Shown here in pieces: positions 22,040 through 58,133 of a stretch of DNA of 64,000 nucleotides (positions are counted from its first letter, which is position 1; each line of letters opens with the position of its first letter). The DNA is from a bacterium (GTDB lineage: Bacteria; Patescibacteriota; UBA1384; VFKW01), in contig JAUSIS010000013.1 of the NCBI GenBank assembly GCA_030647355.1, positions 177,165 to 241,164 on the forward strand, given 5' to 3'. The notes under the pieces were generated by a model. It had not been told where the DNA came from. It saw nothing but the letters and a program-made list of their open reading frames with translations, and ran no database searches. The position numbers and the translations under genes were made by a program.

Positions 22040-22160
22040 TCTTATTTCTTACCAGCTTACTCCCAGTCATTGCGAGGCCTCAGCCGTGGCAATCCCCCCC
22101 ATATTCTTCGAGCCCGGTCGAGAAGCTCTTCTTACTACTTACTAGCTTATTGCTTACTAG
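22040..22160. repeat. Composite dispersed repeat, second copy
   Basis: cagtcattgcgaggcctcagccgtggcaatccccccc...gagcccggtcgagaagctcttc flanked by cttaYttcttac...gcttattgcttac motifs. Confidence 0.6.
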
Positions 22161-22177
22161 CTTCTGAAAGGAACAAC

Positions 22178-23616: not shown

Positions 23617-23650
23617 TTTGCCCCTACAAACCCGACTCCTACCACTATTA
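23617..23650 (+). pseudogene. Short remnant copy of the ahcY terminal codons
   Basis: gcccctacaaacccgactcctaccactattaa versus the genuine 3' end ggccctttcaaacccgattcctatcgttattag (about 80% identity), 36 nt after the real stop and separated from it by a family-A repeat. Confidence 0.4.
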
Positions 23651-23737
23651 ACAATTGTTACTTGGGAATGAATTCCCCTCAATCCTTACTAGCGGCCTAT
23701 AGCCAAGACCACTGAAAAACTTACCCCATAGTAGTCA

Positions 23738-26289: not shown

Positions 26290-26408
26290 CGGCTCGTAAT
26301 CATCTCGACAAACTCGGCGTCAAGCTAACAAAATTAACCAATAAACAAGCCGACTACCTCGGCCTCCCCGTAGGTGGCCCATATAAAAGTGATAATTACC
26401 GATACTAG
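26290..26408 (+). pseudogene. Displaced copy of the ahcY 3' end, about 2.7 kb downstream of the intact gene
   Basis: Translates to [35 protein letters not shown], against the genuine AhcY C-terminus [35 protein letters not shown]. About 75% nucleotide identity. No upstream ahcY body. Confidence 0.65.
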
Positions 26409-28520: not shown

Positions 28521-29230
28521 GAAAAACCTAATTCGTCCACCTTGCCCTGAGCCAACCGATAAGTCTCTAGCGTTCCAATATCCAACAAGAACTCTGTCAT
28601 TTTGTAACCATAAAGAGATTGATTATCTTCCAGTAATTTTGGGAATAAATCATGCCCAAAATCGAAAAATTTACCTTCTGGGATATATTTAATGACCTCC
28701 GATTCGCAAAGATAGATACCAGCATTCGCCCAGTTAGTCGTAATTTCTTCTGACTTAGGTTTTTCTTTAAATGATACTATTCTAGCATCTGAATCCATCT
28801 CAACAATTCCTTTACTTTCAGGATGCTCTTCGTAATATAAAGCTATAGTTACCAACCCACCTTTTTTCCGATGAAATTTGGCTAAATTATCTAGATTAAT
28901 GTTCGTTAAATTATCACCGTAGAAAACAAAAAAAGGTTGATCAAAAAATTCTGAAATTTTTTTGAGCGCGCCAGCAGTACCCATAAGCTCAGCCTCCTTA
29001 GAGTATTTTATTGTCATACCGAACTTTTTGCCATCACCAAAATACTCCATAATCATCTCTGGTAAGCAATATAAATTCATCGCACAATCTTTCACACCAA
29101 ATTTTTTCAATAAACGCAACTGATACTCAAGTAATGGCTTATTCCCAATTGGTAGCATTGGTTTAGGGATTTTATCAGTTAGAGGACGCAGTCTGGTTCC
29201 CAACCCAGCCGCTAATATCATGGCCTTCAC
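28517..29230 (-). CDS. hddC: D-glycero-alpha-D-manno-heptose 1-phosphate guanylyltransferase
   Basis: 237 aa. MKAMILAAGLGTRLRPLT...PKPMLPI sugar-1-P nucleotidyltransferase motif. Coupled to gmhB (TGA/ATG overlap). Confidence 0.7.
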   Translation of the reverse strand: MKAMILAAGLGTRLRPLTDKIPKPMLPIGNKPLLEYQLRLLKKFGVKDCAMNLYCLPEMIMEYFGDGKKFGMTIKYSKEAELMGTAGALKKISEFFDQPFFVFYGDNLTNINLDNLAKFHRKKGGLVTIALYYEEHPESKGIVEMDSDARIVSFKEKPKSEEITTNWANAGIYLCESEVIKYIPEGKFFDFGHDLFPKLLEDNQSLYGYKMTEFLLDIGTLETYRLAQGKVDELGFS

Positions 29231-30228
29231 TACTTCTCCTTGTATCCATTCGGATGCTTTTTATACCACTCCCAAGCAGTCTCAATAATTGTCTTCAAAT
29301 CCGAATATTGATTCTTGTACCCCAAGACATCTGACATCTTGCTCGAATCAGCTATTAATCGGGCAGGGTCACCCGGCCGTCTCCCTTCAACAATTACCTT
29401 GAATTCTTTACCCGATATCTTTTTTACCCATTCGATAATCTCTTTCACACTATAACCCTTCTTATTACCACAGTTAAAATAATCGGTACCGCAACCATTG
29501 TCTAAGTATTTCAAGGCAGCTACATGAATCCCGGCAAGATCGCTAACATGGATAAAATCTCTAATACCTGTACCATCTGGAGTTGGATAATCATCGCCGA
29601 ATATTTTAAAAGCCTCTCTCTTGCCTAAAGCAGTCAATATTGCCAGAGGAATCACATGCGTTTCTGGATCATGATTTTCCCCGATCTTACCATCGGGATC
29701 AGCCCCCGATGCACAAAAATAACGCAGCGACACCGACTTAATGCCATAAGCCCTGTCATAAGCCCCCAGAATCTGCTCAAACTGCCATTTAGTTAGCCCA
29801 TAAGGATTCGTCGGGCTTTTTGGATGATCTTCATTTGTGACCTCACTCTGCGGCTCTCCGTAGACAGAAGCGCTAGATGAAAAAACTATTCGCCTTACCC
29901 CATTGCCCCGCATCGCTTCCAATAGATTCATGCCACCAGTAATATTATTATCAAAATACTTGGCTGGATTTTCCACCGAATCAGGCACCGAAGCATACGC
30001 CGCAAAATGCACAACGCCGTCAATCTTATTTTCTGCAAATATTTGGTTCAACTGTTCTTTGTCCCGCAAGTCGCATTTGACTAACTTACCCCCGACTACA
30101 GCATTCTCGAATCCATTCTCCAAGCTATCAACTACCACCAATTCATAGCCCTGTTTCAGTAATTCTTTAACTGTATGCGACCCAATATACCCTGCCCCAC
30201 CGGTCACTAAAATACAATATTTTCCCAT
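29230..30228 (-). CDS. galE: UDP-glucose 4-epimerase
   Basis: 332 aa. ILVTGGAGYIGSH, catalytic YGxxK (YGLTK) and SSSASVYG. Confidence 0.85.
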   Translation of the reverse strand: MGKYCILVTGGAGYIGSHTVKELLKQGYELVVVDSLENGFENAVVGGKLVKCDLRDKEQLNQIFAENKIDGVVHFAAYASVPDSVENPAKYFDNNITGGMNLLEAMRGNGVRRIVFSSSASVYGEPQSEVTNEDHPKSPTNPYGLTKWQFEQILGAYDRAYGIKSVSLRYFCASGADPDGKIGENHDPETHVIPLAILTALGKREAFKIFGDDYPTPDGTGIRDFIHVSDLAGIHVAALKYLDNGCGTDYFNCGNKKGYSVKEIIEWVKKISGKEFKVIVEGRRPGDPARLIADSSKMSDVLGYKNQYSDLKTIIETAWEWYKKHPNGYKEK

Positions 30229-43487: not shown

Positions 43488-43809
43488 CCCTCAATCCTAA
43501 TTTCATTACCAAATCCCTCAACTGACGCTCTAATCTATGGGACTTAACATACACTCTATAAGTAATAAAAAATAAGAAAACAAACGCGATCCCCAGATAT
43601 GTACCTATACCTGTATTTTGGTTACCAAATTGGCTATTCAATTCTATAAACAAAACTGGCTTAAGCGCAAATACTGCAATTATTGCCCATGCTATAACCC
43701 AGAATAGAAACATTCCTAAGGTTTCTTTTTTCTTTTTATAATCCAAGTAAGTCTTGGATGCAACTAATATAAATAATATGATAGAAATTATTTTGGCTAG
43801 AAAAATCAT
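43474..43809 (-). CDS. DUF2304-like small membrane protein (GT2 partner)
   Basis: 111 aa, two or three TM helices. Overlaps and follows the Dpm1-like GT2, the usual DUF2304 arrangement. Confidence 0.5.
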   Translation of the reverse strand: MIFLAKIISIILFILVASKTYLDYKKKKETLGMFLFWVIAWAIIAVFALKPVLFIELNSQFGNQNTGIGTYLGIAFVFLFFITYRVYVKSHRLERQLRDLVMKLGLRDVEE

Positions 43810-44507
43810 TTCTGCCTCCCAATTCTAATCGCAATAGACTTTGTTAATATATTCACTGCATTTAAAATATCTTGTCCTTTAGCCCTCGAATAATCAGTAT
43901 AAACTACTTCAATCGGCACTTCTGTAAAAGCTAATTTATTGCGCCTAATTTCCCCTACAATCTCCGAACATATCTCATATCCAACCGAATGTAGCTTCAT
44001 TTTTTTCAACGCGCTTTTGGAAAACGCTTTCATTCCCGATTGAGAATCTGAAGTCCATTTTCTAAAAACAATGAAAGTGATAACATTCATCGTCCAGTTC
44101 CCAAAAACCTTTACAAAAGGCATGCCATTATGATTTTTCATTCGAGAGCCTATCACTACATCTTTGCTATCACTTAATATCGGTTTTATTAAATGCTGAA
44201 TATCCTTAACCCTGTGCTGACCATCTGCATCCATAGTTACAATAATATCCGCTTTCTCCTTCTTTGCCACCTCCAAGCCGGTAATCGTCGCCGCTCCTAC
44301 ACCCATATTTAAGACTAACTTGATCGCTCTATCAGCATACTGTTTCGCAACCTCGTAAGTCCTGTCTTCACTACCGTCATCCACCACAATACTAACAATC
44401 TCATCTATTCCCTTTATTTTCTTCGGCAAAGACTTCAAAACCGCCCCAATCACTTTTTCCTCATTATGGGCCGGTATAACAATCGCTAATTTCATAACAA
44501 CCCTCAA
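43806..44507 (-). CDS. GT2 polyprenyl-phosphate sugar synthase (Dpm1-like)
   Basis: 233 aa. LAIVIPAHNEE, VVDDGSED, DADGQH motifs. Confidence 0.85.
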   Translation of the reverse strand: MRVVMKLAIVIPAHNEEKVIGAVLKSLPKKIKGIDEIVSIVVDDGSEDRTYEVAKQYADRAIKLVLNMGVGAATITGLEVAKKEKADIIVTMDADGQHRVKDIQHLIKPILSDSKDVVIGSRMKNHNGMPFVKVFGNWTMNVITFIVFRKWTSDSQSGMKAFSKSALKKMKLHSVGYEICSEIVGEIRRNKLAFTEVPIEVVYTDYSRAKGQDILNAVNILTKSIAIRIGRQK

Positions 44508-44584
44508 TCAAGCTATATTACTTTATCAACTATTAATCAATCTTTTCTAACTTAACTTTATCTGATACAATTTAAACAAATATT

Positions 44585-45988
44585 ATGGATAAAATCAAAT
44601 ATCTTCTCGAAAATAAAATAATTTATTACTTGATTCTCGCCTGTTTCCTTGTTGGACTTCTTTTTCTTGTTTATCAATATGCCTTACTAACAAATTTTCC
44701 TATCGGCGATGATCCTGCCATTCATATCATATACGCTAAAACCTTATCTTACTCCCAAATTTGGCAACAAATTATTTATCCGCTACCACTTATTATATTT
44801 AAATATCTTCATAACCTCACATCAATTGAATACCCAAAACTCTTTACCTTACTAATCCCAACCTTCCTACTGTTTTCGGTTATAGCTATAAGCATTTACA
44901 CATATGGAATTAAAAAAAACATCCTCATCCCAATTACCGCCGCCATCCTTTTTTCAACTGCTAGGTGGACTATCGATGGATTGAGAATGGGATTGCTCGC
45001 AGAAACCTTCGGTTGGGTCATTTTACTGATTACTCTGATTGGATTGTCAAGACAAAATATCATAATTACTCTTATTGGCAGTATCCTATTGCCTTTTTCT
45101 CATCCTTTTTCCACCGTTGTCTATACTCTCATATTTTTACTTTATTTTATCATCTCAATTAAAAACCCCCTTGAACGAAAATTTTTATTCACCATTGCAG
45201 GTGCTTATTTAGCTTTATTTCTACTGTTCCATTTTTTAAAACCGGAACTCATCGATCGTTTTGTAAATTTTTCCAACCCTGAAGTCCGCGGCTGGGGAGA
45301 ACGCAGTTTCATAAATGTTATCACCGGCGAAGCTCCTTACCGATTCCTTATCCCATTAGTTTCTTTGATCGGTATTATCGTTTCATTTAAGGATTGGAAG
45401 AAACCCGTTATAAAAATATCCTACTTATTATTACTTGTTGGAATGTTTTTTTCTTTCAATCATCTCTTTGGAATGCAATTTATTGTTTTCCGTTTCTATC
45501 CTTATCTGGAAATGGGAATGATCATTTTCGCCGCCATCGGTTTGAACTATCTCATCACAAACCTCAAATATAAATCTACTCCCGCCTTATTATTAACTAT
45601 CATATTTTCCCTAATACTTGCTGCTCCAAATTTCCACATCAATCGCTCCGGTATCAAAATACAAGCTCATGATGTCAGCGCCAAAGCAATCATGCTTCCC
45701 GCTGACCAAGCCGCAATAGAATGGATCGACAAAAACACGCTGCCGACCGACACCATCGCCACCGATATCCGTCATTCTATCTGGATAACAGCGTTAGCCA
45801 ATAGAGCAGCTTTTGATTATCAAAATATCTATTTCGACAGTGTTTTATTAACAAAAGAACCCGATCCAAACTTATTAACAGCCAAATATATCTATTATCC
45901 AATTGGCCACACCATTCCTGAAGAGATAACCCAATTTTACAAACCCATCTTCTCTCAAGACGGTGTCACAATCGAGGTTAAAAAATGA
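44585..45988 (+). CDS. Polytopic membrane protein, putative GT-C-type glycosyltransferase
   Basis: 467 aa, many TM helices. Divergent from the Dpm1-like GT2. Confidence 0.4.
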   Translation: MDKIKYLLENKIIYYLILACFLVGLLFLVYQYALLTNFPIGDDPAIHIIYAKTLSYSQIWQQIIYPLPLIIFKYLHNLTSIEYPKLFTLLIPTFLLFSVIAISIYTYGIKKNILIPITAAILFSTARWTIDGLRMGLLAETFGWVILLITLIGLSRQNIIITLIGSILLPFSHPFSTVVYTLIFLLYFIISIKNPLERKFLFTIAGAYLALFLLFHFLKPELIDRFVNFSNPEVRGWGERSFINVITGEAPYRFLIPLVSLIGIIVSFKDWKKPVIKISYLLLLVGMFFSFNHLFGMQFIVFRFYPYLEMGMIIFAAIGLNYLITNLKYKSTPALLLTIIFSLILAAPNFHINRSGIKIQAHDVSAKAIMLPADQAAIEWIDKNTLPTDTIATDIRHSIWITALANRAAFDYQNIYFDSVLLTKEPDPNLLTAKYIYYPIGHTIPEEITQFYKPIFSQDGVTIEVKK

Positions 45989-46353
45989 TCAAATACGATT
46001 CTAAAAAAACTACCATTTTCCTATTATTATATATTTGCCTTGCCCAATTTACCGATTTCCTTCTGCATCTGTGGTTTTTCATCCCCATTCTTATATTAAC
46101 TATTTTTTACTCTGCCAAAGAAATCAAAAAACAAGAATTTTTGCATCTTGCTATTAATTTCCTAATATTTTATCTTATCCTAGAAAGAGTTATCCGCTTG
46201 CCCTATCTCATTCTGACAAAACATGGTTATTCACTCGCCATCTCTATAATTCTCTCAATTCTCTATATCTGTTTTATTCTTTTTATAATCAATATTTTAA
46301 CTAATTTGGGAATCAAACAATATCGAAAGAAGCTTCCATTGCATCAAAAATAA
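45985..46353 (+). CDS. Small membrane protein
   Basis: 122 aa, 3-4 TM. ATGA overlap with the upstream gene. Confidence 0.35.
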   Translation: MIKYDSKKTTIFLLLYICLAQFTDFLLHLWFFIPILILTIFYSAKEIKKQEFLHLAINFLIFYLILERVIRLPYLILTKHGYSLAISIILSILYICFILFIINILTNLGIKQYRKKLPLHQK

Positions 46354-46356
46354 TAA

Positions 46357-47604
46357 TTATTTCATATTATTCTTTGAGATCATCAAACCACTAATTAAAA
46401 ACATCAAAAATATCCCAACCTGACCTGTATAGATATTAATAAAAAGACCTGAAATTGCCATAGCCAATGTCAATAAAAAGGCCGACTTATATTCCAACAT
46501 CCCATATTTTTTATAACTTGCTGCTAGAAAATATCCAAACATCGCCACAAGCAACCCCATCCCAATTAACCCCAGTTGTTCAAATGTATCCAAATAAATA
46601 TTTTCCGTCCAACGGTTAGTTGTCCCATCCAGACTATACTGCGAAGCCGGCCCAGCTGTCCCCATCCCGCGGCCAACCAACCCGATCTCATTTCTTGTAT
46701 CCCATATTCTCTCATACTGTTTAATCCTGTCTTGAGACGAAGCATAATGAGTCAATAAATCTTTCGTCGATGCATTACTATAAACCACTAATCCCAATCC
46801 AGCCAGCAAAAATAAACCCAAACACAAAGAAGTAACCGCTATCCTTAAATTAAACCTATCTTTCAAATAAACAAATAAAACACTAAATAACATCAATATA
46901 GCCCCGATCAATGCACTCCTACAAAATGTAAGAACCAGTACAACAAAAAATATTCCCAAAAGCCATTTGCTCGTTTTGCCAAATTTTTGAAAAATCCCCA
47001 AACAACATCCTACAAGTGCCATCATATACAAACCGAGAGCATTTGGTCCAGCCAAAACCCCTTGTAGACGAGGTATTTTTAGTGAACCGGAAATATGCTC
47101 ACTAACCAACGCCCCCGTCGAAGACAAACTGGTTGTCAAAGGAATTCTAACCCCGACTAGCTCCAAAATTGCCAGAGCAGAAATAACTGATCCCCCTACT
47201 ATCAAAACTTTATATATCCAGCTCTTCTGCTTTTCAGTCAAATCCATCAGACTAACCGACAAAAACAATACGATCGGCATAAAAATAAACCTAAACCCTC
47301 GGAGCCACTGCATCAAGCTATCTTCTCTCCAAAATACCGACAGCAAACCAAATAAGATAAAAACCACAAAAAGCCACAATGACTTATCTATTTTCTTTTT
47401 CTTCAAATAGACCCCGTACAATGCCATCAAAAAAATCAATCCGACAAACAAATCTCTTAGTAAACTAATCGAAGATTTACCTGTTAAACTCACAATCCAC
47501 GAGCTAAAAGGCAAAAAACCAAGCAATCCAACCAAACCATAAAACACCCACTTATTTATTCTTTCAATTTTTGCTAGATTATTTTTTTCCATTCGTTCTC
47601 CCAA
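46357..47604 (-). CDS. O-antigen ligase/polymerase-like (Wzy_C) membrane protein
   Basis: 415 aa, about 10-12 TM with a large external loop, as in the WaaL/Wzy family. Confidence 0.5.
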   Translation of the reverse strand: MGERMEKNNLAKIERINKWVFYGLVGLLGFLPFSSWIVSLTGKSSISLLRDLFVGLIFLMALYGVYLKKKKIDKSLWLFVVFILFGLLSVFWREDSLMQWLRGFRFIFMPIVLFLSVSLMDLTEKQKSWIYKVLIVGGSVISALAILELVGVRIPLTTSLSSTGALVSEHISGSLKIPRLQGVLAGPNALGLYMMALVGCCLGIFQKFGKTSKWLLGIFFVVLVLTFCRSALIGAILMLFSVLFVYLKDRFNLRIAVTSLCLGLFLLAGLGLVVYSNASTKDLLTHYASSQDRIKQYERIWDTRNEIGLVGRGMGTAGPASQYSLDGTTNRWTENIYLDTFEQLGLIGMGLLVAMFGYFLAASYKKYGMLEYKSAFLLTLAMAISGLFINIYTGQVGIFLMFLISGLMISKNNMK

Positions 47605-48973
47605 CTCCCAACGCCTGACTCCGGACTGCTAATCCCGCTATCCACCCTAACAAAAACCAGATATACGTTATATACAAGGTTGAAAAAAATTGATACTGTA
47701 CGATAATACCTACCAAAGCCGAGATAAGAGCACCTAAATAATAATTATTTTTGTCATTTTTATCCGTTGCCACCTTTGCCTTCAAACCCCAATAAATTAC
47801 AAACCCGAGAAAACTCAATATTACCAGCATCCCCACCAAACCTGTTTCCGCCAATATTTCTAGCGGCTCATTATTTACAATCTGATTCGTTCCATAAACG
47901 GTTGCCTTTCCAGCCGCGTATGGTCCGAAATTACCAATTCCTACCCCAAAAAGCGGCTTGCTCTTCCAAGCCTCGATTGCCAGATCATAAGTACTTTTTC
48001 TATCATTTGTCGAATAATCATTCTGATCAACTGCATGGTTGGTAAACCTGCTGATAGCCATCCTGCTATTTTGGGTATTATTAACTTGTCCAGGGTTCAA
48101 TCGATTGGATTCTATTTTCTGATACCAACCAGCAAACCCAATCATCAAAAATGCAAACCCTGTAATAACTACTCCCTCCCCAACCAATAATAAAACCCTT
48201 TTCCAGTTATCTAATCTCGCGTACATGAGCAGAACTGCCAAAACCATAAACGCCGCCCCAAGATATGCCCCTCTTGAAATCGACAAAACTAACACTGCAC
48301 CAATTAATATGGTTAAAATTCTTCTCCATAAAGCAGAAATTATTTTCCAATCTTTCAATTCAGCAATCATTAAAAATGCCAGTGGTATTATCATAAAATT
48401 ACCCATATAGAGAGGCTCTAAAAACGTCGATTGAATTCTTGGAAAGCCAAATACTAATTTTGTATATTCCAACCGTAAACCAGTAAAAATTGTTGACACA
48501 CCCAAAACATCTCCGATGAATTGATACAATCCAAATAAAGTAATCAAACCAGATACAACCAGCAACGTCTTTATCATTAATTCTTTTTTATCCCTTAAAA
48601 CCAACTGAGATGCTACCAAAAAGACAACACATGCATAGGCGGAAAAAATTAGATAATGAACTCCTCTGCCGATATCGATCGCCCCCCGAAGTGACACCAA
48701 GCAAACCAGTAAATAAACCAACAATAAAAGATAATATTTTTTGACTTTAATTTTCTCTCTTTTCCTCATCCAATCCCAGATAATTATCAAAAAAGAAACT
48801 CCCAATAAAATCTCATTTATTTTAATCGTCGCTCCGGTAATATCAAAAGAGGGGAGTCGCTCAAACGGCAACGATGCTACCAAAATTGCCGGCATCCACT
48901 CTCGCTTAACAACCATCAGCACTGTTCCTATTAGCGCCAAAACCAATATCAACCAAATCAACTTTTCCTCCAC
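47579..48973 (-). CDS. O-antigen ligase/polymerase-like membrane protein (second copy)
   Basis: 464 aa polytopic. Loop containing PLFGVGIGNFGPY resembles Wzy_C. Confidence 0.5.
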   Translation of the reverse strand: MEEKLIWLILVLALIGTVLMVVKREWMPAILVASLPFERLPSFDITGATIKINEILLGVSFLIIIWDWMRKREKIKVKKYYLLLLVYLLVCLVSLRGAIDIGRGVHYLIFSAYACVVFLVASQLVLRDKKELMIKTLLVVSGLITLFGLYQFIGDVLGVSTIFTGLRLEYTKLVFGFPRIQSTFLEPLYMGNFMIIPLAFLMIAELKDWKIISALWRRILTILIGAVLVLSISRGAYLGAAFMVLAVLLMYARLDNWKRVLLLVGEGVVITGFAFLMIGFAGWYQKIESNRLNPGQVNNTQNSRMAISRFTNHAVDQNDYSTNDRKSTYDLAIEAWKSKPLFGVGIGNFGPYAAGKATVYGTNQIVNNEPLEILAETGLVGMLVILSFLGFVIYWGLKAKVATDKNDKNNYYLGALISALVGIIVQYQFFSTLYITYIWFLLGWIAGLAVRSQALGVGRTNGKK

Positions 48974-49773
48974 CCTCGCAACTTAAAATAATTAACCATT
49001 ACTATTGGCCAACGCAACATATCTAAACACATTACCGACCATAATCCATAATGCTTCGCAAAAAACCGCGCTTGGTTTTGATAATACATCTGCTTCTGCT
49101 TCCAACCTACACCAAAGCTCCTCCCGCCCAGATGAACAATCTCCACTTCCGGATACCACGCCACCTTGAATCCCTCTTCTTTCACCCCCTGACACAAATC
49201 CGTATCTTCAAAATACATAAAAAATCGCTCGTCAAAACCGCCAATTTTTTTAAACAAATCCCTTCGAATCAAAAGCACCGCGCCTGTCACCCAATCAACC
49301 TCCGCATAACCCTTGCTGTTCAATTTTGCCTTAAAATTTACATTTCTCCCTAAAAGAGACCATAAACTTGGCTCTCTCCCATACTGCCCAATTTGCTCCG
49401 TTCCTCCATCCTCCAAAACCAATTTCGGCCCTATTGCCCCGACATCTCTATGTCTCCCCATAAATTCCACCATTCTCCTGATCCCATCGTCCACCAAAAC
49501 CGTATCGCTATTTAAAAACAGTAAATATTCTCCCGACGCCATCTTTGCCCCGATATTATTTGCCGCCCCAAAACCCACATTTTTCTCATTTTCCACTACC
49601 CTTACCCAACCAAAGCTAGCTCTCACCGCCTCCACAGAGCCGTCAGACGAGGCATTATCCACTACCGTAACCTCAACTTCATTTTTATCCAAAAACCTCT
49701 CCAAGGACGCCAAGCAGTCAAGCAATAGCTTTTTAGTATTATAACTGATGATTATTATTGATAACTTCACCAT
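48958..49773 (-). CDS. Glycosyltransferase family 2
   Basis: Start chosen at MVKLSIIIISYNTKKLL. VDNASSDGS, FGFGAANN, NSDT motifs. Confidence 0.85.
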   Translation of the reverse strand: MVKLSIIIISYNTKKLLLDCLASLERFLDKNEVEVTVVDNASSDGSVEAVRASFGWVRVVENEKNVGFGAANNIGAKMASGEYLLFLNSDTVLVDDGIRRMVEFMGRHRDVGAIGPKLVLEDGGTEQIGQYGREPSLWSLLGRNVNFKAKLNSKGYAEVDWVTGAVLLIRRDLFKKIGGFDERFFMYFEDTDLCQGVKEEGFKVAWYPEVEIVHLGGRSFGVGWKQKQMYYQNQARFFAKHYGLWSVMCLDMLRWPIVMVNYFKLRGWRKS

Positions 49774-49819
49774 CAACCTATCTTGCTCATAACCCGATAA
49801 AATAATACAATATCCATAG

Positions 49820-51121
49820 ATGGCCGAACAAAAAACAAAAATAGCTTTAATATGCAACGACTATATCGGATCAAAAATGGCTGGACCAGGTATCCGTTAT
49901 TTTGAAATGGCCAAAGTGTTCTCTCAACATTTCGAAACCACCTTATTTGTACCCGACTCCTGCGATTTTAAATCTGACGACTTCCAAATCATCACTTACA
50001 ACTCCGCTAAATCCAGCTCCAGTATAGCAAAAAAACTGGGTAATTGCGACTATGTCATCGCCCAGAACCTCCGCCCTACCCTCATAAAATTTATAAAACA
50101 AAATAAAATCCGCTATATTTCCGATCAATATGACCCTCTCCTCATTGAAATTCTTGAATATACAAAAGGTGATTCCCAACAATTAAAACAAAACACTTCA
50201 AAATTTATATATCATCTGACCATGCTGCAGTTTTTCACTGCTGACCATGTTCTTTGCGCCTCTGAGATTCAAAAAAGTTTCTATCTCGGCTTAATGTCCG
50301 GTAACCAACTTATATCCCCAAATGAATATAAAAATGACCCTGGTCTCAATAATTTTATGAGTTTATTGCCCTTTGGCATTTCCCAAGACAAGCCGATATA
50401 TACAAACCCAAACCAGATGGAAGAAAAATTTCCGCAAATAAAACCTGATGATAAAATTATTTACTGGGGTGGGGGAGTGTGGAATTGGTTCGATGCTCTT
50501 TCTGCCGTCAAAGCAATCGAGATTATCTCCAAAAAACGCTCCGATATTAAACTTTTCTTTTTAGGCACACGGCCTCCCAACCCCAAAATCAAAGAAATGG
50601 CCATGGTAGGGAGAACTGTCGATTATTGTCGCCAGCACAATCTACTTGATAAATTTGTCTTTTTCAATTTTGGCTGGACCCCTTATGAGGAAAGAGTCAA
50701 TTACCTACTTCGTTCCTCTGTCGGCATCTCAACTCATTTTTCTTCACTTGAAACCAGATTTTCCTTTCGCACCAGAGTGCTAGATTATTTTTGGGCCGAA
50801 CTTCCCATGGTCTTAACCAAAGGTGATTATATGGCCGATCTAACACAAAAACATAATCTCGGTCTTGTAGTCGATTATCAAGACTCTACGGCTATCGCCG
50901 CCGCAATTGAGAAAATCATCGATCATCCCGATACTTACAAAATAATGAAAGCCAATATCGTCGAGTTCAAAAAACAATTTTTATGGGAACAATCCGCCAA
51001 AGAATTAATTGAAAAGGTTAAATCAGATAAAATAGTTTTCCATCCCATAAGCCCATCCAAATTTCAAGCCTTACAATTTAATTTTTACTACTGGGGATTT
51101 AGAAAGAAATTTTTCAAATAA
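49820..51121 (+). CDS. Glycosyltransferase, GT-B fold (GT4-like)
   Basis: 433 aa. Two-lobed Rossmann-like organisation with a conserved E in the C-lobe. Confidence 0.45.
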   Translation: MAEQKTKIALICNDYIGSKMAGPGIRYFEMAKVFSQHFETTLFVPDSCDFKSDDFQIITYNSAKSSSSIAKKLGNCDYVIAQNLRPTLIKFIKQNKIRYISDQYDPLLIEILEYTKGDSQQLKQNTSKFIYHLTMLQFFTADHVLCASEIQKSFYLGLMSGNQLISPNEYKNDPGLNNFMSLLPFGISQDKPIYTNPNQMEEKFPQIKPDDKIIYWGGGVWNWFDALSAVKAIEIISKKRSDIKLFFLGTRPPNPKIKEMAMVGRTVDYCRQHNLLDKFVFFNFGWTPYEERVNYLLRSSVGISTHFSSLETRFSFRTRVLDYFWAELPMVLTKGDYMADLTQKHNLGLVVDYQDSTAIAAAIEKIIDHPDTYKIMKANIVEFKKQFLWEQSAKELIEKVKSDKIVFHPISPSKFQALQFNFYYWGFRKKFFK

Positions 51122-51158
51122 TATTCATATAATCAAAAAAGTTACAAAAAAGGTAAAA

Positions 51159-52610
51159 ATGGAACCGGATATTCACGCCAATCCTAATAAAATCGCTTCC
51201 AACACTCTTTTCCAGATTATTTCAAAATTTGCTATCCTTTTATTGTCTCTAATTGCGATTAAAATTATTACCAATACACTTGGTGTCAGCGGTACGGGCT
51301 ACTTTAACACTATTACCACCTATTTCGGGTTCATCATCATTGCCGCTGATTTAGGACTTTTCTCTGTCGCCGTACGCGAAATTTCCAAACAACCGGAAAA
51401 ACAAAGAAAAATTTTATATAACGTTTTTACAATAAGACTGATTTTCTCAACAATCTTTACAATTATCGGTATTTCCCTCGCTTTCTTGACACATTACCCC
51501 TCCCAAATAAAATACGGACTTCTTATTGCTAGCTTATATCCGATTATAAATCTTGTCTCCAGCGTTTATGATATCTTTTTTCAATACAAATTAGAGATGA
51601 AAAAAGTCGCCATTTCTGAACTTTTTTCAAAAATTATTACTACCGTTATTTTACTCATTTTTACTTATTATAAGGTCAATTTTTACATCTTTATGACTAC
51701 CATTCCCATCGCCGCCCTCCTAATATTTATCTGTAAAATCTACCTTAGCCGCAATGAATTAAAGCTCAAATTTGAATACGACAAACCAGTTTATAATAAT
51801 CTATTAAAAATGTCTTTACCTTTAGGTATTGTCTTTATTGTTAATAATTTCTATTTTAAAGTTGACACATTGATTCTCTTTTTCTTTAAAGGCGCTACTG
51901 CTGTCGGTATTTATTCCGTTACCTATCGTATCCTCGAAACCACTCTTTTCACTGGCTCATTTCTTTCAAGTTCATTAAAACCATTACTATCCACCTCTGT
52001 TCACAACGATCCGGCTAAAACCGAAAAAGCCCTCCAGCGCGGTTCGGCCTTCTTGGTTTTTATGGCTTTATTTTTGACCATTTCTTGTGTTACCTTTCCA
52101 AGAGAAATCATCACTCTTTTAAGTAACAACTCCTTCATTTCCGGACAATACGCCCTAGTAATTCTCGGTTTCGTCTCTATATTTATCTATACCGGCGGCT
52201 TACTTGGCGAAATTATGATTGCCCTTGATCTTCGTCGAATTTTAATTCGTAACTCAATATTCATCTTACTTTTCAATGTTATTCTTAATGTCCTGGTTAT
52301 TCCTCGCTATTCCTTCACCGGCGCCGCCGTTACTACCTTGATTTCAGAAATTGTATTATTTACCATCACCGCTACGATAGTAAAAAAATATTTCAAACTT
52401 GCTTTTGATTGGCCTAGAATTGCTAAATTACTTGGTATCGCATTTTTATCAATCCTGCTCGGTTATACCTTCAAAAGCTATACACCATTTCTATTAAATC
52501 TTCCTTTAGTGTTATTATTTTATGCCGTCATTGCATATTTTGCCGACGCCATCCCCAGAGAAATTACCGATAATTATCTCAAAACTATAAAATCCCGTTT
52601 CTCAAGATGA
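51159..52610 (+). CDS. Polysaccharide flippase (Wzx/MOP superfamily)
   Basis: 483 aa, 14 predicted TM helices. N-terminus typical of the polysaccharide biosynthesis protein family. Confidence 0.65.
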   Translation: MEPDIHANPNKIASNTLFQIISKFAILLLSLIAIKIITNTLGVSGTGYFNTITTYFGFIIIAADLGLFSVAVREISKQPEKQRKILYNVFTIRLIFSTIFTIIGISLAFLTHYPSQIKYGLLIASLYPIINLVSSVYDIFFQYKLEMKKVAISELFSKIITTVILLIFTYYKVNFYIFMTTIPIAALLIFICKIYLSRNELKLKFEYDKPVYNNLLKMSLPLGIVFIVNNFYFKVDTLILFFFKGATAVGIYSVTYRILETTLFTGSFLSSSLKPLLSTSVHNDPAKTEKALQRGSAFLVFMALFLTISCVTFPREIITLLSNNSFISGQYALVILGFVSIFIYTGGLLGEIMIALDLRRILIRNSIFILLFNVILNVLVIPRYSFTGAAVTTLISEIVLFTITATIVKKYFKLAFDWPRIAKLLGIAFLSILLGYTFKSYTPFLLNLPLVLLFYAVIAYFADAIPREITDNYLKTIKSRFSR

Positions 52611-52613
52611 TAC

Positions 52614-52640
52614 AAAAATGAGTCGCTAGCGACTCATTTT
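52614..52640. terminator. Bidirectional rho-independent terminator
   Basis: Perfect palindrome aaaatgagtcgc-ta-gcgactcatttt just after the flippase stop. Confidence 0.65.
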
Positions 52641-52694
52641 AATAATTCTTACTGTCCACCCCGACCGAAGTGTCAGGGCTGGCCAACTTACTTT

Positions 52695-52937
52695 TTTTGG
52701 GTTAGCATATGAGGCTACCGAATCACCCAATCTTCTTTCCACCGCCTCATAATTCACTTTTTTACCACTTGCTCACTCTACCTCGTCAATTACTTCAAAA
52801 ACCGTATATCCTTTGCCGGTTCCCAGATTAAAAACTCCAGATTCATCCTTTTCCATTAGCAGGGTTAGGATAATATTAAAAGCTCTCCCCGCTACTTGTA
52901 TTATTGTGTTGTAGGCAACGTTTCTCGCAATAGTCAT
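52695..52937 (-). pseudogene. Decayed fragment of a galE-type epimerase C-terminal region
   Basis: Minus-strand frames read ...RAFNIILTLLMEKDESGVFNLGTGKGYTVFEVIDEVE* and KVNYEAVERRLGDSVASYANP. These match ...KALKLLLDGDKSDVFNLGTGTGYSVLEVLSEVE and KINYKVVDRRPGDPAVSYANP of the intact epimerase at 53568..54749. Frameshifts and stops present. Confidence 0.6.
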
Positions 52938-53006
52938 ATATCTTCCGACCTATTATACCATAAAAAACGGACAATTTCCGCGTCTTAAACTATATTTTAG
53001 CTATAA

Positions 53007-53528
53007 TTACTGGCTCGTTTTATATACAAATAATTGATTACTAAGCAGCTCGTTTTCCGGTAGAACTCTTAATCCTTCCTCCAAGGTCTTTACCGCCTCA
53101 TCTTTAAGATCAAGCTTAAACTGAATTTCAGCTTTTTCAAGATAAAGAGTCACCTGTGAAGAATCTAGTTTGATGGCCGAATCCAAACTTTGCAGAGCAT
53201 CATTGAATTGCCCTTGATTCTTACTATCCATCGCATTCTGATAATAACTCGCCACCGTAGCTTGAGTTTTAGAAGTTATTGGTGGTTGAACCGTTGGTGT
53301 ACTGGTCGAGGGAGAACCTCCGCCGCCAGGGCTGCCGCCCTTAACGTCGGGTTCTGTTTGAGAAGGGGCTGTACTGCCAGGAACATCTGGCTGATCAACT
53401 TGCATCTGCACTGGCGGCTTTGTACTTTTCGGTTTGGAAGAACGAATAAAAATTAAGGAAACGCCCACACAGACAAGAACTATAATGGCTAAGATTACCA
53501 ATTTATGTTTGCCTAAAAATAACCCCAT
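53007..53528 (-). CDS. Membrane-anchored protein with Pro/Ser/Thr-rich linker and TPR-like C-terminal domain
   Basis: 173 aa. One N-terminal TM, low-complexity linker (GGSPGGGGSPSTSTPTVQPP), helical C-terminus. Confidence 0.4.
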   Translation of the reverse strand: MGLFLGKHKLVILAIIVLVCVGVSLIFIRSSKPKSTKPPVQMQVDQPDVPGSTAPSQTEPDVKGGSPGGGGSPSTSTPTVQPPITSKTQATVASYYQNAMDSKNQGQFNDALQSLDSAIKLDSSQVTLYLEKAEIQFKLDLKDEAVKTLEEGLRVLPENELLSNQLFVYKTSQ

Positions 53529-53567
53529 CGATACTCCTCAATATCATTATAACACGCCAGGTAATCA

Positions 53568-54749
53568 TCAGTCACCATATCCTTTGAGATGGGTAGAATG
53601 CCACTTCCAGGCAGTTACTGCCATATCCGCCAAACTATATTTCGCTTTCCAGTTCAGCTTGTCGTTAGCTCGCTTGGGATTAGCATAAGAAACCGCCGGA
53701 TCCCCTGGACGCCGATCAACAACCTTGTAATTAATCTTTCTTCCGCTTGCCTTTTCCACCTCTGATAAAACTTCTAAGACTGAATATCCCGTGCCTGTGC
53801 CTAAATTAAACACATCCGATTTATCTCCATCAAGTAATAATTTAAGTGCTTTCACATGGCCATCCGCTAAATCTAGTGGATGAATATAATCTCTGACACC
53901 CGTTCCATCTTTTGTTGGATAATCGTTCCCAAATACTTGCAGCTTGCCCAAATTTCCTAAAATACTCAAGATAGTTCTTGTCATAAGATTCGTCGGTTCT
54001 GGCTTGTCATCCCCCATCTTGCCGTCCAAACTGGCTCCGCAAACATTGAAGTAACGGAGCGCTACGCATTTAATACCATAAAGTTTATCGTATTTTTCCA
54101 TAATTATTTCATCAAATAATTTGGTTAAACCATAAACCGATGAAGGTATCATAAGCTTAATTTTTTCTTCATCGGTAAGCAATAAATCTTGGCGCAAAGC
54201 AAACATTTGTTGGTAGCTCTCCAATATTTTTCCCAAAAACTCGTTTTTTTTCACTTTCTGCCCGTCCCAGTGACCTTCCAACAAACAAGACTTCCCGGGT
54301 TTAAAATCCTGCAAGTAATTCTCTTCCAGCGGAAAATATTTATCTTCCGGATCGCCATATACAGCTGCGGTTGAAGATTTAATAATATACTTACATCCCT
54401 TTTCTCTCATCACATCAAGCAGTTTAATGAAATTTTCCACATTATTTATCATGTATTTTTTGGGATTTTCCATTGATTCGCCCACCGACAAATAAGCCAC
54501 AAAATCAATCACTGCTTCAATTGGATATGTATCAAACACTCGTCTAACCCCTGCAATATCAGCTAAATCTACAATTTCCAGGTGCAATTTACTACTGACA
54601 CCAGACCCCTGACCACCTAGAGCGGCGCTTAGCGCCGCCTCATGCCCATTCTCTAAACTATCCAGCACCACAACTTCCCAGCCATTATTTATTAGTTCTC
54701 TAACTGTAAAACTGCCAATATAGCCAGCCCCACCAGTTACTAGAATCAT
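53568..54749 (-). CDS. NAD-dependent sugar epimerase, GalE family with about 55-aa insertion
   Basis: 393 aa. ILVTGGAGYIGSF, SSTAAVYGDP, YGLTK, and C-terminus as in UDP-glucose 4-epimerase. Extra segment between VYGDP and YGLTK. Confidence 0.8.
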   Translation of the reverse strand: MILVTGGAGYIGSFTVRELINNGWEVVVLDSLENGHEAALSAALGGQGSGVSSKLHLEIVDLADIAGVRRVFDTYPIEAVIDFVAYLSVGESMENPKKYMINNVENFIKLLDVMREKGCKYIIKSSTAAVYGDPEDKYFPLEENYLQDFKPGKSCLLEGHWDGQKVKKNEFLGKILESYQQMFALRQDLLLTDEEKIKLMIPSSVYGLTKLFDEIIMEKYDKLYGIKCVALRYFNVCGASLDGKMGDDKPEPTNLMTRTILSILGNLGKLQVFGNDYPTKDGTGVRDYIHPLDLADGHVKALKLLLDGDKSDVFNLGTGTGYSVLEVLSEVEKASGRKINYKVVDRRPGDPAVSYANPKRANDKLNWKAKYSLADMAVTAWKWHSTHLKGYGD

Positions 54750-54756
54750 AAAACTC

Positions 54757-55608
54757 CTATCTGGCTTTCAAATAATCTGCCAGCGCCGATTGCCAATCTC
54801 TCATTACTATCCCCAGATTAGCTAATTTTGCAGTAGACAGCACTGAATATTGTGGCCTTTTGGCCGGCCCTGGATATTCATTTGTAGAAATAGGGGAGAC
54901 CTTAATCTCTTTATTTACTAGCCTAAAAATCTCGCATGCGAAATCATACCAACTACAATGCCCGGAATTAACCGCATGGAAAACTCCGGTAACATTTTTA
55001 TCAATCAATTTTTTAATTGCTCCTGCCAAGTCTTTAGTGTAAGTAGGGGAGCCAACTTGGTCGTTAACCACTCCCAAAGTTGTTTTTTCTTCGGCTAATT
55101 TTAGCATGGTCTCAACAAAATTCTTTTTACTTCGAGCTCCATCGAGAAGCCCGTTTTCCCCATAAAGCCAAGCAGTTCGAGCAATAATGTATTCCGGTAA
55201 ATTAGAAATTCTTTTTTCGCCAGCTAACTTGCTTTTCCCGTAAATACTCTGCGGGTTGGTCTGATCGTTTTCTTTGTAGGGCTGTGTTGCTGTTCCGTCA
55301 AATACATAATCAGTCGAGACATAAACAACTTTAGCCCCAACCTCTTTTGCCAATTCTGCAACATTTTCAGTAGCTTCATCATTAATTAAAAAAGTGGTTT
55401 TTTGGTCTGATTCGGCACCGTCAACATTGGTGTACGCGGCTGCATGAATAATGACTGCTGGCTTAAATTCTCTGCCAACCTTGAGCACTTCCTCACGATT
55501 GGTAATATCCATCTCTTCTTTATCGGTTGCCAAAATCTCATCATCGGCAAATACTCTTTTCAACCAATAACCAAGCTGTCCGTTAGCCCCCGTAATTAAT
55601 ATTTTCAT
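54757..55608 (-). CDS. rfbD: dTDP-4-dehydrorhamnose reductase
   Basis: 283 aa. MKILITGANGQLG, catalytic YGKSK. Confidence 0.9.
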   Translation of the reverse strand: MKILITGANGQLGYWLKRVFADDEILATDKEEMDITNREEVLKVGREFKPAVIIHAAAYTNVDGAESDQKTTFLINDEATENVAELAKEVGAKVVYVSTDYVFDGTATQPYKENDQTNPQSIYGKSKLAGEKRISNLPEYIIARTAWLYGENGLLDGARSKKNFVETMLKLAEEKTTLGVVNDQVGSPTYTKDLAGAIKKLIDKNVTGVFHAVNSGHCSWYDFACEIFRLVNKEIKVSPISTNEYPGPAKRPQYSVLSTAKLANLGIVMRDWQSALADYLKAR

Positions 55609-55675
55609 TTTTCTCCTCTGATAAAAACAGGCTTCCTGCTACTTAATCGAGCATATGGTTATGAGGAGAGTTAAG

Positions 55676-55722
55676 CGTAGTGCCGTTCAAGTTGCGTTAG
55701 CAACCTGAACAAAACGCTCTCC
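55676..55722 (-). promoter_or_regulatory. Conserved 5'-UTR hairpin motif (copy 2), about 68 nt upstream of the rfbD start
   Basis: aagcgtagtgccgttcaagttgcgttagcaacctgaacaaaacgctc. About 85% identical to 15701-15744. Same distance from a minus-strand start codon. Confidence 0.4.
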
Positions 55723-55764
55723 GAATGACTATACGCTCGATTTATCATCCCTTTTCCTTAGTTA

Positions 55765-56778
55765 TTATCTATTACTATACTGCTTCTTATAATAATCCTG
55801 ATATTCGCCCGATTTTACTCTTTTCCACCAATCCTCATTATCCCGATACCATTGGACCGTTTTCTCCAACCAGTCTTCAAAATCATGCTCTGGCTCCCAA
55901 CCCAATTCCCGCCTGATTTTACTGGCATTAATCGCATATTTTACATCATGTCCGGGACGATCTCCTACCATTTCAATCTTATCTTCACTCTCTCCCAGTA
56001 TTTTCAGGATCATCCTCGCCACTTCCAAGTTGGTATATTCCCGATGCTGGCTGCCCACCAGATATGTTTCACCTATTTTACCCTTTTCCAAAACCAAATC
56101 TATGGCACGGCAGTGATCAGTCACATAAAGCCAGTCGCGTACCTGATTCCCTGGTTTATAAATGGGGATTTTTTTACCTTCCAAAATATTAGTAACTGCC
56201 AATGGAATAAGTTTCTCCGGAAAGTGATATGGTCCAAAATTATTTGAGCAGTTAGTAATAGTAATCGGCAAGCCGTAAGTGATGTGATATGCCCGCACCA
56301 AATGGTCAGAAGCCGCCTTGCTTGCCGCATAAGGACTACGCGGGTTATATGGACTGTCCTCCACCCATTCTTCCTTAGAATCCAGCTCAATCATCCCATA
56401 AACTTCATCAGTCGAAACATGATGAAACCTTTGTACCTTTAATTCTTTGGCAACATTCAGCAAAACCTGCGTTCCGATCACATTGGTTCGGACAAAAACC
56501 GCCGGACCGGTAATACTCCTGTCAACATGCGATTCTGCGGCAAAATGCACTACTATATCGCAGCCTTGCATAGCCGATTTCACATGCTCATATTCACAGA
56601 TATCACCCTTAACGAATCTATATCTTCCATCCCCGTCAATCTCTTTTAAATTCTCCAAATTTCCCGCATAGGTCAGCGCATCAAAATTAACGATCTCGAT
56701 ATCGCTATGCTCATTAAGCATATAACGAATAAAATTCGACCCGATAAATCCGGCTCCTCCGGTTACAAAAAGTTTCAT
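55765..56778 (-). CDS. rfbB: dTDP-glucose 4,6-dehydratase
   Basis: 337 aa. MKLFVTGGAGFIGSNF, YAASKAASD catalytic motif. Confidence 0.93.
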   Translation of the reverse strand: MKLFVTGGAGFIGSNFIRYMLNEHSDIEIVNFDALTYAGNLENLKEIDGDGRYRFVKGDICEYEHVKSAMQGCDIVVHFAAESHVDRSITGPAVFVRTNVIGTQVLLNVAKELKVQRFHHVSTDEVYGMIELDSKEEWVEDSPYNPRSPYAASKAASDHLVRAYHITYGLPITITNCSNNFGPYHFPEKLIPLAVTNILEGKKIPIYKPGNQVRDWLYVTDHCRAIDLVLEKGKIGETYLVGSQHREYTNLEVARMILKILGESEDKIEMVGDRPGHDVKYAINASKIRRELGWEPEHDFEDWLEKTVQWYRDNEDWWKRVKSGEYQDYYKKQYSNR

Positions 56779-56779
56779 G

Positions 56780-57262
56780 TTACTCCTCTTTTAGTAAATC
56801 CCAATCAAATCCTATTTCCTTATCATATGGATCAATTCTCTCTTCGTCCGGATTCGTGCTGTCGTAGGCTTTCGTTACATGATAAAAAAGCAAACATGGT
56901 TCTTTTGACAATACCTTGTAACCGTGCACCACTCCGACCGGAATCAAAACCAACTTATAGTCATCAGTTCCGCCATAAATCACATCCGTCTGACCATGCG
57001 TTAGGGAATCTTTCCTTTGATCATATAATACTATCGCCGCCTTGCCGGAAGCCAGAAACCATAAATCATCTTGATATTTGTGCCAATGAAACGCCTTTAT
57101 TGTACCCGTGTGGGCAATCGTAAAATTACTCTGTCCAAATTTAGACATCAAATTATCGTCATCCCGCAAAACTTCCATCAAAACACCGGGTTTGATGTCT
57201 TGTTTTAAATCCGGCTTATCTTCCCAAACCTTCAGTTCTTTAATTTTCACTCCATCTATCAT
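56780..57262 (-). CDS. rfbC: dTDP-4-dehydrorhamnose 3,5-epimerase (RmlC-like cupin)
   Basis: 160 aa cupin with HxH..F/W..Y pattern. Immediately follows rfbB. Confidence 0.75.
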   Translation of the reverse strand: MIDGVKIKELKVWEDKPDLKQDIKPGVLMEVLRDDDNLMSKFGQSNFTIAHTGTIKAFHWHKYQDDLWFLASGKAAIVLYDQRKDSLTHGQTDVIYGGTDDYKLVLIPVGVVHGYKVLSKEPCLLFYHVTKAYDSTNPDEERIDPYDKEIGFDWDLLKEE

Positions 57263-57410
57263 CTTTCTACCTTCCTCGCTTAGTTAGTTATTCTTTGTTA
57301 AAAACCCTCGCGCAGACCGAAGCGGGCATGGTGTCGCAAAGCGACGAGCAAGGACGAGCGGGAGCGCAATTTTCTCGCTGGGAAAATTGATAGCGTGTTT
57401 TCGGCAAAGC

Positions 57411-58133
57411 TTAACTAACCGTTTGTTTGGCCTTCTCCGCCATAATATTACTAATACTCAAAAGTCCCTCAAATGTCCCCGCATCTTCCCAAACACCTTC
57501 AATAATATTTACTTTCAATTCTTTCATCTGTAAAAACACATTATTCAAATCGGTTATTTCAATCTCTCCTCGAGCGGATGGCTTCAAATTCTTCGCCAAC
57601 TGAATCACCTGATTATCGTAAACATATAACCCCACCACCGCATAGTTGCTTTTTGGCTTTGTTGGCTTCTCTTCGATCGAGAGAACGCTCATTTTGTCGT
57701 CAAAATCCACTACTCCGAACCTCTCCGGATCTTCCACCTCTTTGGCAAATACCATCCCGCCTTTTTCAAACGATTTAATCTGCTTAGTAAAATCGTGGTC
57801 AAAGATATTATCACCCAAAATCATTGCAACTGACTCCTCGCCTATAAAATCCTCACCTACAATGAATGCATCTGCCAATCCTCTGGGTTCCTCTTGAATC
57901 GCATAACTGAATTTAGCCCCAAAATCTTTGCCTGAACCCAAAAGATGCATAAAATGGCCGGCATGTTCCGGTGCTACGATAATTAATATCTCCTCAATAC
58001 CAGCTTTTACCAATGTCTCAAGCGGATAAAAAATCATCGGCTTGTTATACACCGGCAATAACTGCTTGGAGGTGACTTTAGTTAGCGGTCTAAGTCGTGT
58101 TGCTTTCCCTCCCGCTAAAACAATCCCTTTCAT
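57411..58133 (-). CDS. rfbA: Glucose-1-phosphate thymidylyltransferase (short form)
   Basis: 240 aa. MKGIVLAGGKATRLRPLT...KQLLPVYNKPMIFYPL. Confidence 0.9.
   Translation of the reverse strand: MKGIVLAGGKATRLRPLTKVTSKQLLPVYNKPMIFYPLETLVKAGIEEILIIVAPEHAGHFMHLLGSGKDFGAKFSYAIQEEPRGLADAFIVGEDFIGEESVAMILGDNIFDHDFTKQIKSFEKGGMVFAKEVEDPERFGVVDFDDKMSVLSIEEKPTKPKSNYAVVGLYVYDNQVIQLAKNLKPSARGEIEITDLNNVFLQMKELKVNIIEGVWEDAGTFEGLLSISNIMAEKAKQTVS

Follow-up and report, generated by a model that had tools for sequence, protein, structure and literature searches.

A wzx-galE fusion relic at a glycan-cluster boundary in a Patescibacteria genome

Introduction

Leftover pieces of genes in O-antigen clusters are read as traces of relatively recent recombination or gene replacement, and in the O-antigen and capsule clusters of Salmonella and E. 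coli a dead, shortened part of a sugar-pathway, wzx, or wzy gene can stand at the boundary of differently related blocks (PMC7685785, PMC3715488). Here we describe a further example of such junction remnants, already familiar from glycan clusters, in a 64,000-nt stretch of a metagenome-assembled genome (MAG) from the Patescibacteria (GenBank assembly GCA_030647355.1, contig JAUSIS010000013.1, positions 177,165 to 241,164). We call this whole stretch the window, and all positions below are counted from its first letter. The relic lies on the minus strand downstream of an intact galE gene (53568-54749), and it differs from the enterobacterial remnants in three ways: its host is an uncultured member of the Patescibacteria and no insertion sequence or H-repeat is found at the joint; it is a chimera of two genes; and the parental forms are known from distant relatives only, not from sister serogroups.

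A second point of comparison is homology-facilitated illegitimate recombination (HFIR) in naturally transformable bacteria, put forward to explain displaced 3' ends of genes in type VI secretion arrays of V. cholerae and the displacement of rhs C-termini, in which a one-sided homologous anchor and an illegitimate joint at the other end give an insertion coupled with a deletion (PMC5361080, PMC3240628). HFIR products carry 3-10 bp of microhomology at the joint (PMC3240628). The process can leave a displaced native 3' part downstream of the incoming genes, a feature that the relic may share; however, no anchor or donor was found for the present relic, the two galE sequences, at 60% DNA identity, have diverged too far for this segment to have been the anchor, and microhomology at the joint is only a possibility.

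Some integrative elements copy the 3' end of the gene into which they insert. Elements of this sort, such as tRNA-gene islands or, in the E. coli gene icd, e14 and phage 21, leave an intact gene, the inserted DNA, and a displaced 3' fragment in the same orientation, and to this extent they resemble the relic locus. Such elements, however, carry an integrase, share an identical att core, and displace a fragment that reaches the native stop codon; none of the three is present here. Lastly, a Campbell-type single crossover of circular DNA carrying a partial gene, as in the lacZ-end duplications of 109-950 bp (PMC3240628), yields a partial gene-end duplicate that flanks the inserted DNA. This requires DNA homology between the copies, which is absent from the galE pair; it may fit the copies of the pyrB and ahcY gene ends that lie elsewhere in the window.

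Identity and structure of the relic

The galE-like fragment is real and is derived from galE. In a tblastn search within the window, the resident 393-aa epimerase matches 52868..52677 with 59% identity over 68 aa (E 6e-19), and the conceptual translation of the relic matches positions 241-302 of the 332 in NCBIfam TIGR01179 (galE; E 4e-14), aligned in register to the substrate-binding region at the C-terminus. When conceptual peptides of 30, 54, and 103 aa from the relic were scanned against Pfam, no match was obtained; it was NCBIfam that detected galE. From these matches and the codon-position identities given below, the galE-derived part (52677..52871, minus strand) is the relic of a second long-type galE, covering residues ~300-369 of the 393 in the resident protein. 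The entire match runs in one frame, interrupted by a single in-frame TGA (52773-52775) where the resident galE has Lys, and it carries in addition a 4-codon (12-nt) deletion; for the final 24 codons and the stop of galE no counterpart follows the fragment, in this or in the other frames. A functional epimerase gene would have a complete open reading frame (ORF), an N-terminal Rossmann domain, and the catalytic Ser/Tyr/Lys; the relic has ~65 codons, a stop, a deletion, and neither end, and is not functional as a gene. Recoding of TGA was considered and ruled out, as the resident galE itself ends in TGA.

The relic was first pointed out in an earlier note, made from the sequence alone, as a decayed C-terminal pseudogene of galE that lies beyond a small gene for a tetratricopeptide repeat (TPR) membrane protein, spans 52695-52937, and matches the last about 85 residues of the epimerase in frameshifted pieces. 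A dead galE-derived fragment does lie there, but it is not the C-terminal end of the gene, no frameshift is needed to read it, and the first 22-28 codons of that span (52854-52937) do not belong to galE. The note's own counter-test, a better match to the other galE of the window (29230-30228), did not go against it: that gene gives a weaker match of 41% over 49 aa (E 4e-4).

The non-galE codons are the start of a flippase gene. The start of the relic ORF, MTIARNVAYNTIIQVAGRAFNIIL (residues 1-28), aligns with residues 1-28 of the Wzx flippase encoded at two of the loci surveyed below, L003 and L004, with 57% identity; within it, MTIARNVAYNTIIQVAGRAFNIILTLL pairs residue 1 to residue 1 with MNVMRKVAYNTIVQIAGRFINIFLALVL of that flippase. 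Across ~1 Mb of fetched loci together with the window this is the sole significant match (E 4.6e-7; next best E 2.5), and the coding DNA is likewise similar. The L003/L004 gene carries Pfam Polysacc_synt and MatE in its precomputed annotation; a Pfam scan of the 30-aa peptide of the relic found nothing, the peptide being too short. On the strength of this start-to-start alignment, we assign 52854..52937 (minus strand) as a 5' relic, ~22-28 codons long, of a Wzx/MOP flippase gene. The DNA upstream of it, including the promoter (TGGTATAAT), is conserved relative to the DNA upstream of the L003 and L004 wzx, with TTTTTNGGTATAAT kept. The intergenic region (52938..53006, minus strand), examined by a terminator scan and by the alignment with L003/L004 upstream DNA, combines a small terminator-like hairpin 3' of the TPR gene (52967-52981) with an extended -10 (TGGTATAAT, 52952-52960) that we assign to the lost flippase gene.

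The flippase and galE homologies overlap at the codons ILTLL (52856..52870, minus strand), the probable junction zone. Flippase homology extends to NIILTLL (NIFLALVL in L003), and galE homology begins at LTLLMEK (YLLEK in the homologue P0001, LKLLLDG in the resident galE). The joint would therefore lie within about five codons around 52856-52870, its exact break point being estimated from this overlap. Read along the minus strand, the relic consists of the promoter, wzx codons 1 to ~25, in-frame galE codons ~300-369, and a palindromic terminator—a perfect 13+13 palindrome at 52615..52640 that was found by both the repeat search and the terminator scan and forms a terminator-like hairpin between the relic and the convergent resident wzx. 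The 957-bp interval from the galE stop (53568) to the stop of that wzx (52610) holds the intact TPR gene and the chimeric pseudogene. The relic is thus a dead fusion between the start of a lost flippase gene and a tail part of a second, very different galE; the correct annotation is a wzx'::'galE chimeric remnant, not a duplication.

Two further explanations bear directly on this composite structure. The 54-aa ORF at 52773-52937 might be a functional small membrane protein that has co-opted the flippase start; it retains a promoter-like element, a start codon, and one predicted hydrophobic helix, and it appears as a gene call in the Logan annotation. We consider this very improbable, given that the ORF has no homologues except itself and that its C-terminal half is galE sequence up to a premature stop, beyond which the galE homology goes on in frame. 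Alternatively, the joint could be a metagenome assembly chimera of two co-occurring genomes, as the source is a MAG contig whose two flanks resemble different types of arrangement. However, the Logan assembly of SRR13727527, which is independent of the source assembly, is 100% identical to window positions 43568-57390, and since two assemblies agree base for base over 13.8 kb the relic is not an assembler artefact. Moreover, wzx and galE lack the k-mer-length identity needed for mis-joining, and the pseudogene lesions in the galE part (stop, deletion, truncation) would be unexpected in the intact gene of a second genome; an assembly error is thus most unlikely.

Divergence of the relic from the resident galE

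How the relic is related to its neighbour can be judged from the substitutions that separate them. Over 60 aligned codons the two share 60.6% DNA identity, distributed as 72/78/32% over the three codon positions; third positions are at the random level, with a saturated proportion of synonymous differences (pS 0.93) and a nonsynonymous divergence (dN) of 0.25. A blastn search (word size 7) of the galE 3' end against the fragment found no match. Saturated third positions and the missing DNA match together indicate the relic of a separate, long-functional galE and not a recent duplication of the 3' end. Judged from these codon-position patterns, both galE sequences diverged for a very long time while each encoded a functional protein, the relic's ancestor being under purifying selection; its inactivation, marked by one stop, one in-frame deletion, and truncations, is comparatively recent.

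Protein comparisons lead to the same picture. The relic is 60.7% identical to the resident GalE and 55-69% identical to the long-type GalE of other Patescibacteria, with about eight foreign homologues at least as similar as the neighbour (among them P0001 at 69%, P0021 at 66%, and P0008 and P0007 at 64% each); the same segment of the resident GalE is itself 58-65% identical to P0001, P0021, P0008, and P0007. A closer source was not found in an exhaustive HMMER search of 1.84 billion representative proteins, where the best hit was the family representative P0024 at 57%—because a single sequence stands for each 50%-identity cluster in this library, more similar members of a cluster would escape the search. 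A word-indexed homologue search with the fragment yielded no more than a pair of short pieces of galE, 65-67% identical and lying on very small contigs without context, and a scan of genome contigs with the full-length galE alignment rested on universal GalE motifs, hitting 80 unrelated bacteria, and was uninformative.

A local tandem duplication of the 3' region of the resident galE, followed by neutral decay, would account for the proximity and the shared orientation of the two sequences. Yet neutral decay down to 60% DNA identity would have scattered stops and frameshifts and struck all codon positions equally, whereas the relic has one stop, one in-frame deletion, and the 72/78/32% pattern, and its closest relative is not its neighbour; we regard this explanation as barely tenable. 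A tandem duplication of galE-TPR-wzx followed by deletion was likewise tried and ruled out, as there is no TPR gene after the fragment and the sequences have diverged too far.

Comparison with other long-type galE loci

The resident galE encodes an intact long-type UDP-glucose 4-epimerase of 393 aa (53568..54749, minus strand; TIGR01179 E 1e-107, and Pfam Epimerase). It is the last gene of an operon rmlA-rmlC-rmlB-rmlD-galE on the minus strand (rmlA, 57411-58133; rmlC, 56780-57262; rmlB, 55765-56778; rmlD, 54757-55608). Its product is 100% identical to an NCBI protein labelled 'MAG: bacterium' and has ~120 homologues at 50-65% identity, labelled Patescibacteria or Berkelbacteria. Beyond the TPR gene and the relic, the resident Wzx flippase gene (483 aa; 51159..52610, plus strand; Pfam Polysacc_synt) is convergent with the relic and heads a block wzx-GT1-GT2-Wzy-Wzy (GT, glycosyltransferase), in which GT1 (49820-51121, plus strand) is likewise convergent with the rml-galE side; wzx and GT1 lead into a 26-kb low-GC glycan cluster. 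The relic, then, sits between an rmlACBD-galE-TPR block and a wzx-GT1-GT2-Wzy-Wzy block, the position of a glycan-cluster gene remnant.

We surveyed 58 loci that carry a long-type galE. In about 47 of them the gene has a fixed housekeeping context, priA-galE-def/fmt-rpsP-KH-trmD, where def/fmt is a fusion; a long-type galE after rmlACBD was seen only in a small subclade that includes the window. As a separate observation, the long GalE of Patescibacteria (loci L087, L089 to L135, and L137) measures 385-395 aa and has a ~60-residue insertion relative to classical GalE. Within the glycan-linked subclade the 3' flank of galE is different every time (window, L002, L003, L005/L088, and L136), and some of these arrangements match one side of the relic or the other.

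On the left side, L088 has an o58278-like gene followed by rmlACBD, galE, TPR, TPR2, and a gene for a 576-aa protein (its rmlA is 72% identical to that of the window, against 51% for L002), while L005/L006 have rmlD, an amine oxidase gene, galE, TPR, and TPR2. In L003/L004, galE is followed by a gene for a 109-aa membrane protein, the same-strand wzx whose start matches the relic, GT2, and Wzy. On the right side, L002 has an o58278-like gene, rmlACBD, and galE, then after a 6-nt gap the convergent wzx (70% identical to that of the window), GT1 (58%), GT2, Wzy, and Wzy, in synteny with the resident block; neither a TPR gene nor a galE fragment lies between its galE and wzx. Set against L002, the window has 957 bp in place of 6 nt and lacks ~300 codons of the relic galE; L002 is a distant relative, not the recipient. 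At L136, galE is followed by convergent GtrA, GT2, and DUF2304. In gene order the window therefore reads as a mosaic, L088/L003-like up to the start of the relic wzx and L002-like from the galE tail onward, and both parental arrangements exist in relatives.

The same survey bears on the TPR gene (53007..53528, minus strand), which encodes a membrane-anchored protein of 173 aa with Pfam TPR_19 and TPR_11. At L088 and at L005/L006, homologues of 173-174 aa with the same architecture (33.5% identity; E values 1e-27 to 1e-30) stand directly 3' of galE; a word-indexed search with the protein matched only itself. Given its recurrence at this place in two other lineages, the gene is a conserved downstream partner of galE and not cargo.

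This matters for the explanation put forward in the earlier note, that a site-specific integrating element targeting the 3' ends of protein-coding genes had brought in the TPR gene as cargo, supplied galE with a replacement 3' end, and displaced the native end downstream. A same-orientation fragment 0.7 kb downstream of galE with a gene in between, and two further 3'-end copies in the window (ahcY and pyrB), speak for such a model. However, there is no integrase or recombinase between gene and fragment, the TPR gene being the sole intact gene there; no direct repeat of at least 13 nt at >85% identity links 52600-52950 with 53568-53900, and no att-like core is present; the fragment, joined to the first codons of a wzx, breaks off 24 codons before galE ends; its DNA identity to galE is at the level of unrelated orthologues; and the TPR gene accompanies galE elsewhere. 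Around the relic, Rfam families and tRNA genes were not found, and the repeat search gave only the terminator palindrome. The integrating-element model is largely refuted and highly unlikely. Two more points of the note are unsupported: its account of the fragment as a copy of the adjacent galE 3' end (the third-position identity and the pS and dN values speak against this, as does a neighbour at 61% amid other Patescibacteria at 55-69%), and its grouping of the relic with the pyrB and ahcY copies as a third case of a single pattern. Those copies are detectable at the DNA level and the galE relic is not, its divergence being different and much older. Those two cases were correctly called as gene-end copies, but they are not of the same kind. 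The note's other suggestion, 3'-end replacement by recombination, comes close to the explanation that we favour.

A proposed scar of glycan-cassette turnover

We propose, with a probability of roughly 0.55, that the relic is the scar of an illegitimate joint left by transfer-linked, HFIR-like recombination with foreign Patescibacteria DNA during turnover of a surface-glycan cassette. DNA from another Patescibacteria lineage would have been taken up and recombined, one end by homology (on the rml side or on the far side of the cluster) and the other illegitimately, by a non-homologous and possibly microhomology-mediated joint at wzx codon ~25 and galE codon ~300. This joint would have removed the rest of the relic wzx, whatever came after it, and the first ~300 codons of the second galE, connecting a left block rmlACBD-galE-TPR-wzx start (the arrangement of L088, L005, and L003) to a right block in which the truncated galE faces the convergent wzx-GT1-GT2-Wzy-Wzy (as in L002). 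The relic would afterwards have gained its stop codon, its 12-nt deletion, and its 3' truncation. We favour a transfer-linked event; with it, a single step suffices to convert an arrangement known from relatives into the mosaic of the window. The alignments show that the relic is composite, and from there we infer which way the transfer went, where the homologous anchor lay, and that the history took one step and not two. Natural transformation is documented in Patescibacteria (PMC10633639).

The main rival to this transfer-linked event is a deletion in situ, with no new transfer: two adjacent glycan clusters in the same orientation (galE, TPR, wzx, and onward to a second galE facing the resident wzx) would have undergone one illegitimate deletion from wzx codon ~25 to galE codon ~300, so that the genome would have been streamlined and nothing imported. 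In its favour, every part is on the same strand and their order is the one that a simple deletion needs, and both galE genes were functional for long; the reductive genomes of Patescibacteria also fit. However, two long-type galE genes or a second galE fragment occur in none of the 58 surveyed long-galE loci, the tandem state requires a prior acquisition or duplication and so amounts to a two-step version of the same scar, and the mosaic of L088-like and L002-like blocks is equally easily explained by import. We consider an in-situ deletion possible, though on the unlikely side. Recombination-scar readings of every sort, taken together, are highly probable.

Several points weigh against the transfer-linked reading. 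An internal deletion between two resident clusters yields the same structure; no close relative is present in the databases (the best galE homologue is at 65%), which puts the pre-event state, the donor, and the direction out of reach; and each parental arrangement rests on one or two lineages. The junction is resolved to about five codons only, too coarsely to prove microhomology, and the 3' truncation of the relic galE requires an extra event. GC content, GC3 (GC at third codon positions), and skew do not discriminate among the rml-galE-TPR block, the relic, and the wzx block, and natural competence has been demonstrated only in Saccharibacteria, not in this lineage.

Gene-end copies at ahcY and pyrB, and other features of the window

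A window-wide scan confirmed the copies of the ahcY and pyrB gene ends. The last 38 codons and the stop of ahcY (22175-23581) recur at 26292-26408 with 79% amino-acid identity (80% over 80 nt at the DNA level, E 9e-16), 2.7 kb downstream of ahcY and 17 nt before a GHMP-kinase gene. A third copy of the ahcY end, nine codons long (PYKPDSYHY and the stop), lies at 23622-23651, 41 nt past the ahcY stop. The copies enclose a gene for a DUF4143 AAA ATPase (23927-25066), a 113-aa ORF, and a 74-aa HicA-like ORF; no integrase is present there. The region looks like the product of serial replacement of the gene end together with insertion of selfish or defence-type genes. At pyrB (3' end, 11786-11935), 45 nt corresponding to codons 291-305 recur on the same strand at 9863-9906, 1.9 kb downstream (89%, E 2e-10), and the DNA between the copies is a convergent, unusually GC-rich guaA (9997-11724; GC 54%, GC3 59%), which suggests that guaA was inserted at the pyrB 3' end.

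The ahcY and pyrB cases are true gene-end copies, in keeping with related DNAs that recombined through an anchor or integrated by a single crossover. The galE relic is internal, chimeric, and recognizable at the protein level only; at most the general theme of DNA captured through an anchor unites it with them, and they do not form one element family. One may go further and read all three as scars of one process, in which a naturally competent Patescibacteria lineage repeatedly captures foreign DNA: a conserved gene would serve as the anchor for recombination at one end, the other end would be joined by an illegitimate event or a single crossover, and each event would leave a displaced gene end beside the captured DNA (guaA, the ATPase/HicAB-like module, or the whole glycan cassette). 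By extension, the inward-pointing ahcY (26292-26408) and galE (52677-52871) fragments may be the two ends of a block, either native or imported, that had its flanks overwritten afterwards. We offer this reading tentatively and rather doubt it.

The glycan cluster itself (26 kb, window 24000-53000) has a GC content of 29-39%, compared with 41-55% in its flanks, and is bracketed by the inward-pointing 3' fragments of ahcY and galE; that these are the two ends of one block around the cluster is a possibility. Near ahcY, a repeat of ~95 nt, ~95% identical between its copies at 20042-20140 and 22047-22145, precedes a pfkB-like kinase gene and ahcY, respectively. Its core GTCATTGCGAG occurs eight times in the window against 0.7 expected (also at 8784, 22562, 23734, 23800 on the minus strand, and 58188), with one inverted pair just 3' of ahcY at the edge of the inserted segment; the ~95-nt repeat matches no Rfam family and may be an element like a repetitive extragenic palindrome or a miniature inverted-repeat transposable element, or an unrecognised leader. 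An S-adenosylmethionine riboswitch (RF00162, 50.4 bits; 18664-18800, plus strand) stands upstream of metK (18857-20023), and another accessory gene within the methionine-cycle gene row, for an AbiEii-type nucleotidyltransferase toxin (21377-22039, plus strand), lies between the pfkB-like kinase gene and ahcY.

Significance

Taken alone, the relic is a routine pseudogene of low to moderate interest. Its modest value lies in giving direct sequence evidence of surface-glycan cassette turnover by illegitimate recombination beside a conserved rml-galE operon in Patescibacteria—organisms whose epibiotic lifestyle depends on the cell surface and whose routes of gene gain are poorly documented. It also draws attention to the 3' flank of long-type galE, a boundary that varies in one subclade although most others keep the gene in an invariant priA-galE-def/fmt context. 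If the three gene-end relics within 64 kb do reflect one process, they would be a countable signature of anchored DNA capture in genomes of the Candidate Phyla Radiation, and genome-wide counts of such relics could then measure gene gain in these reduced genomes.

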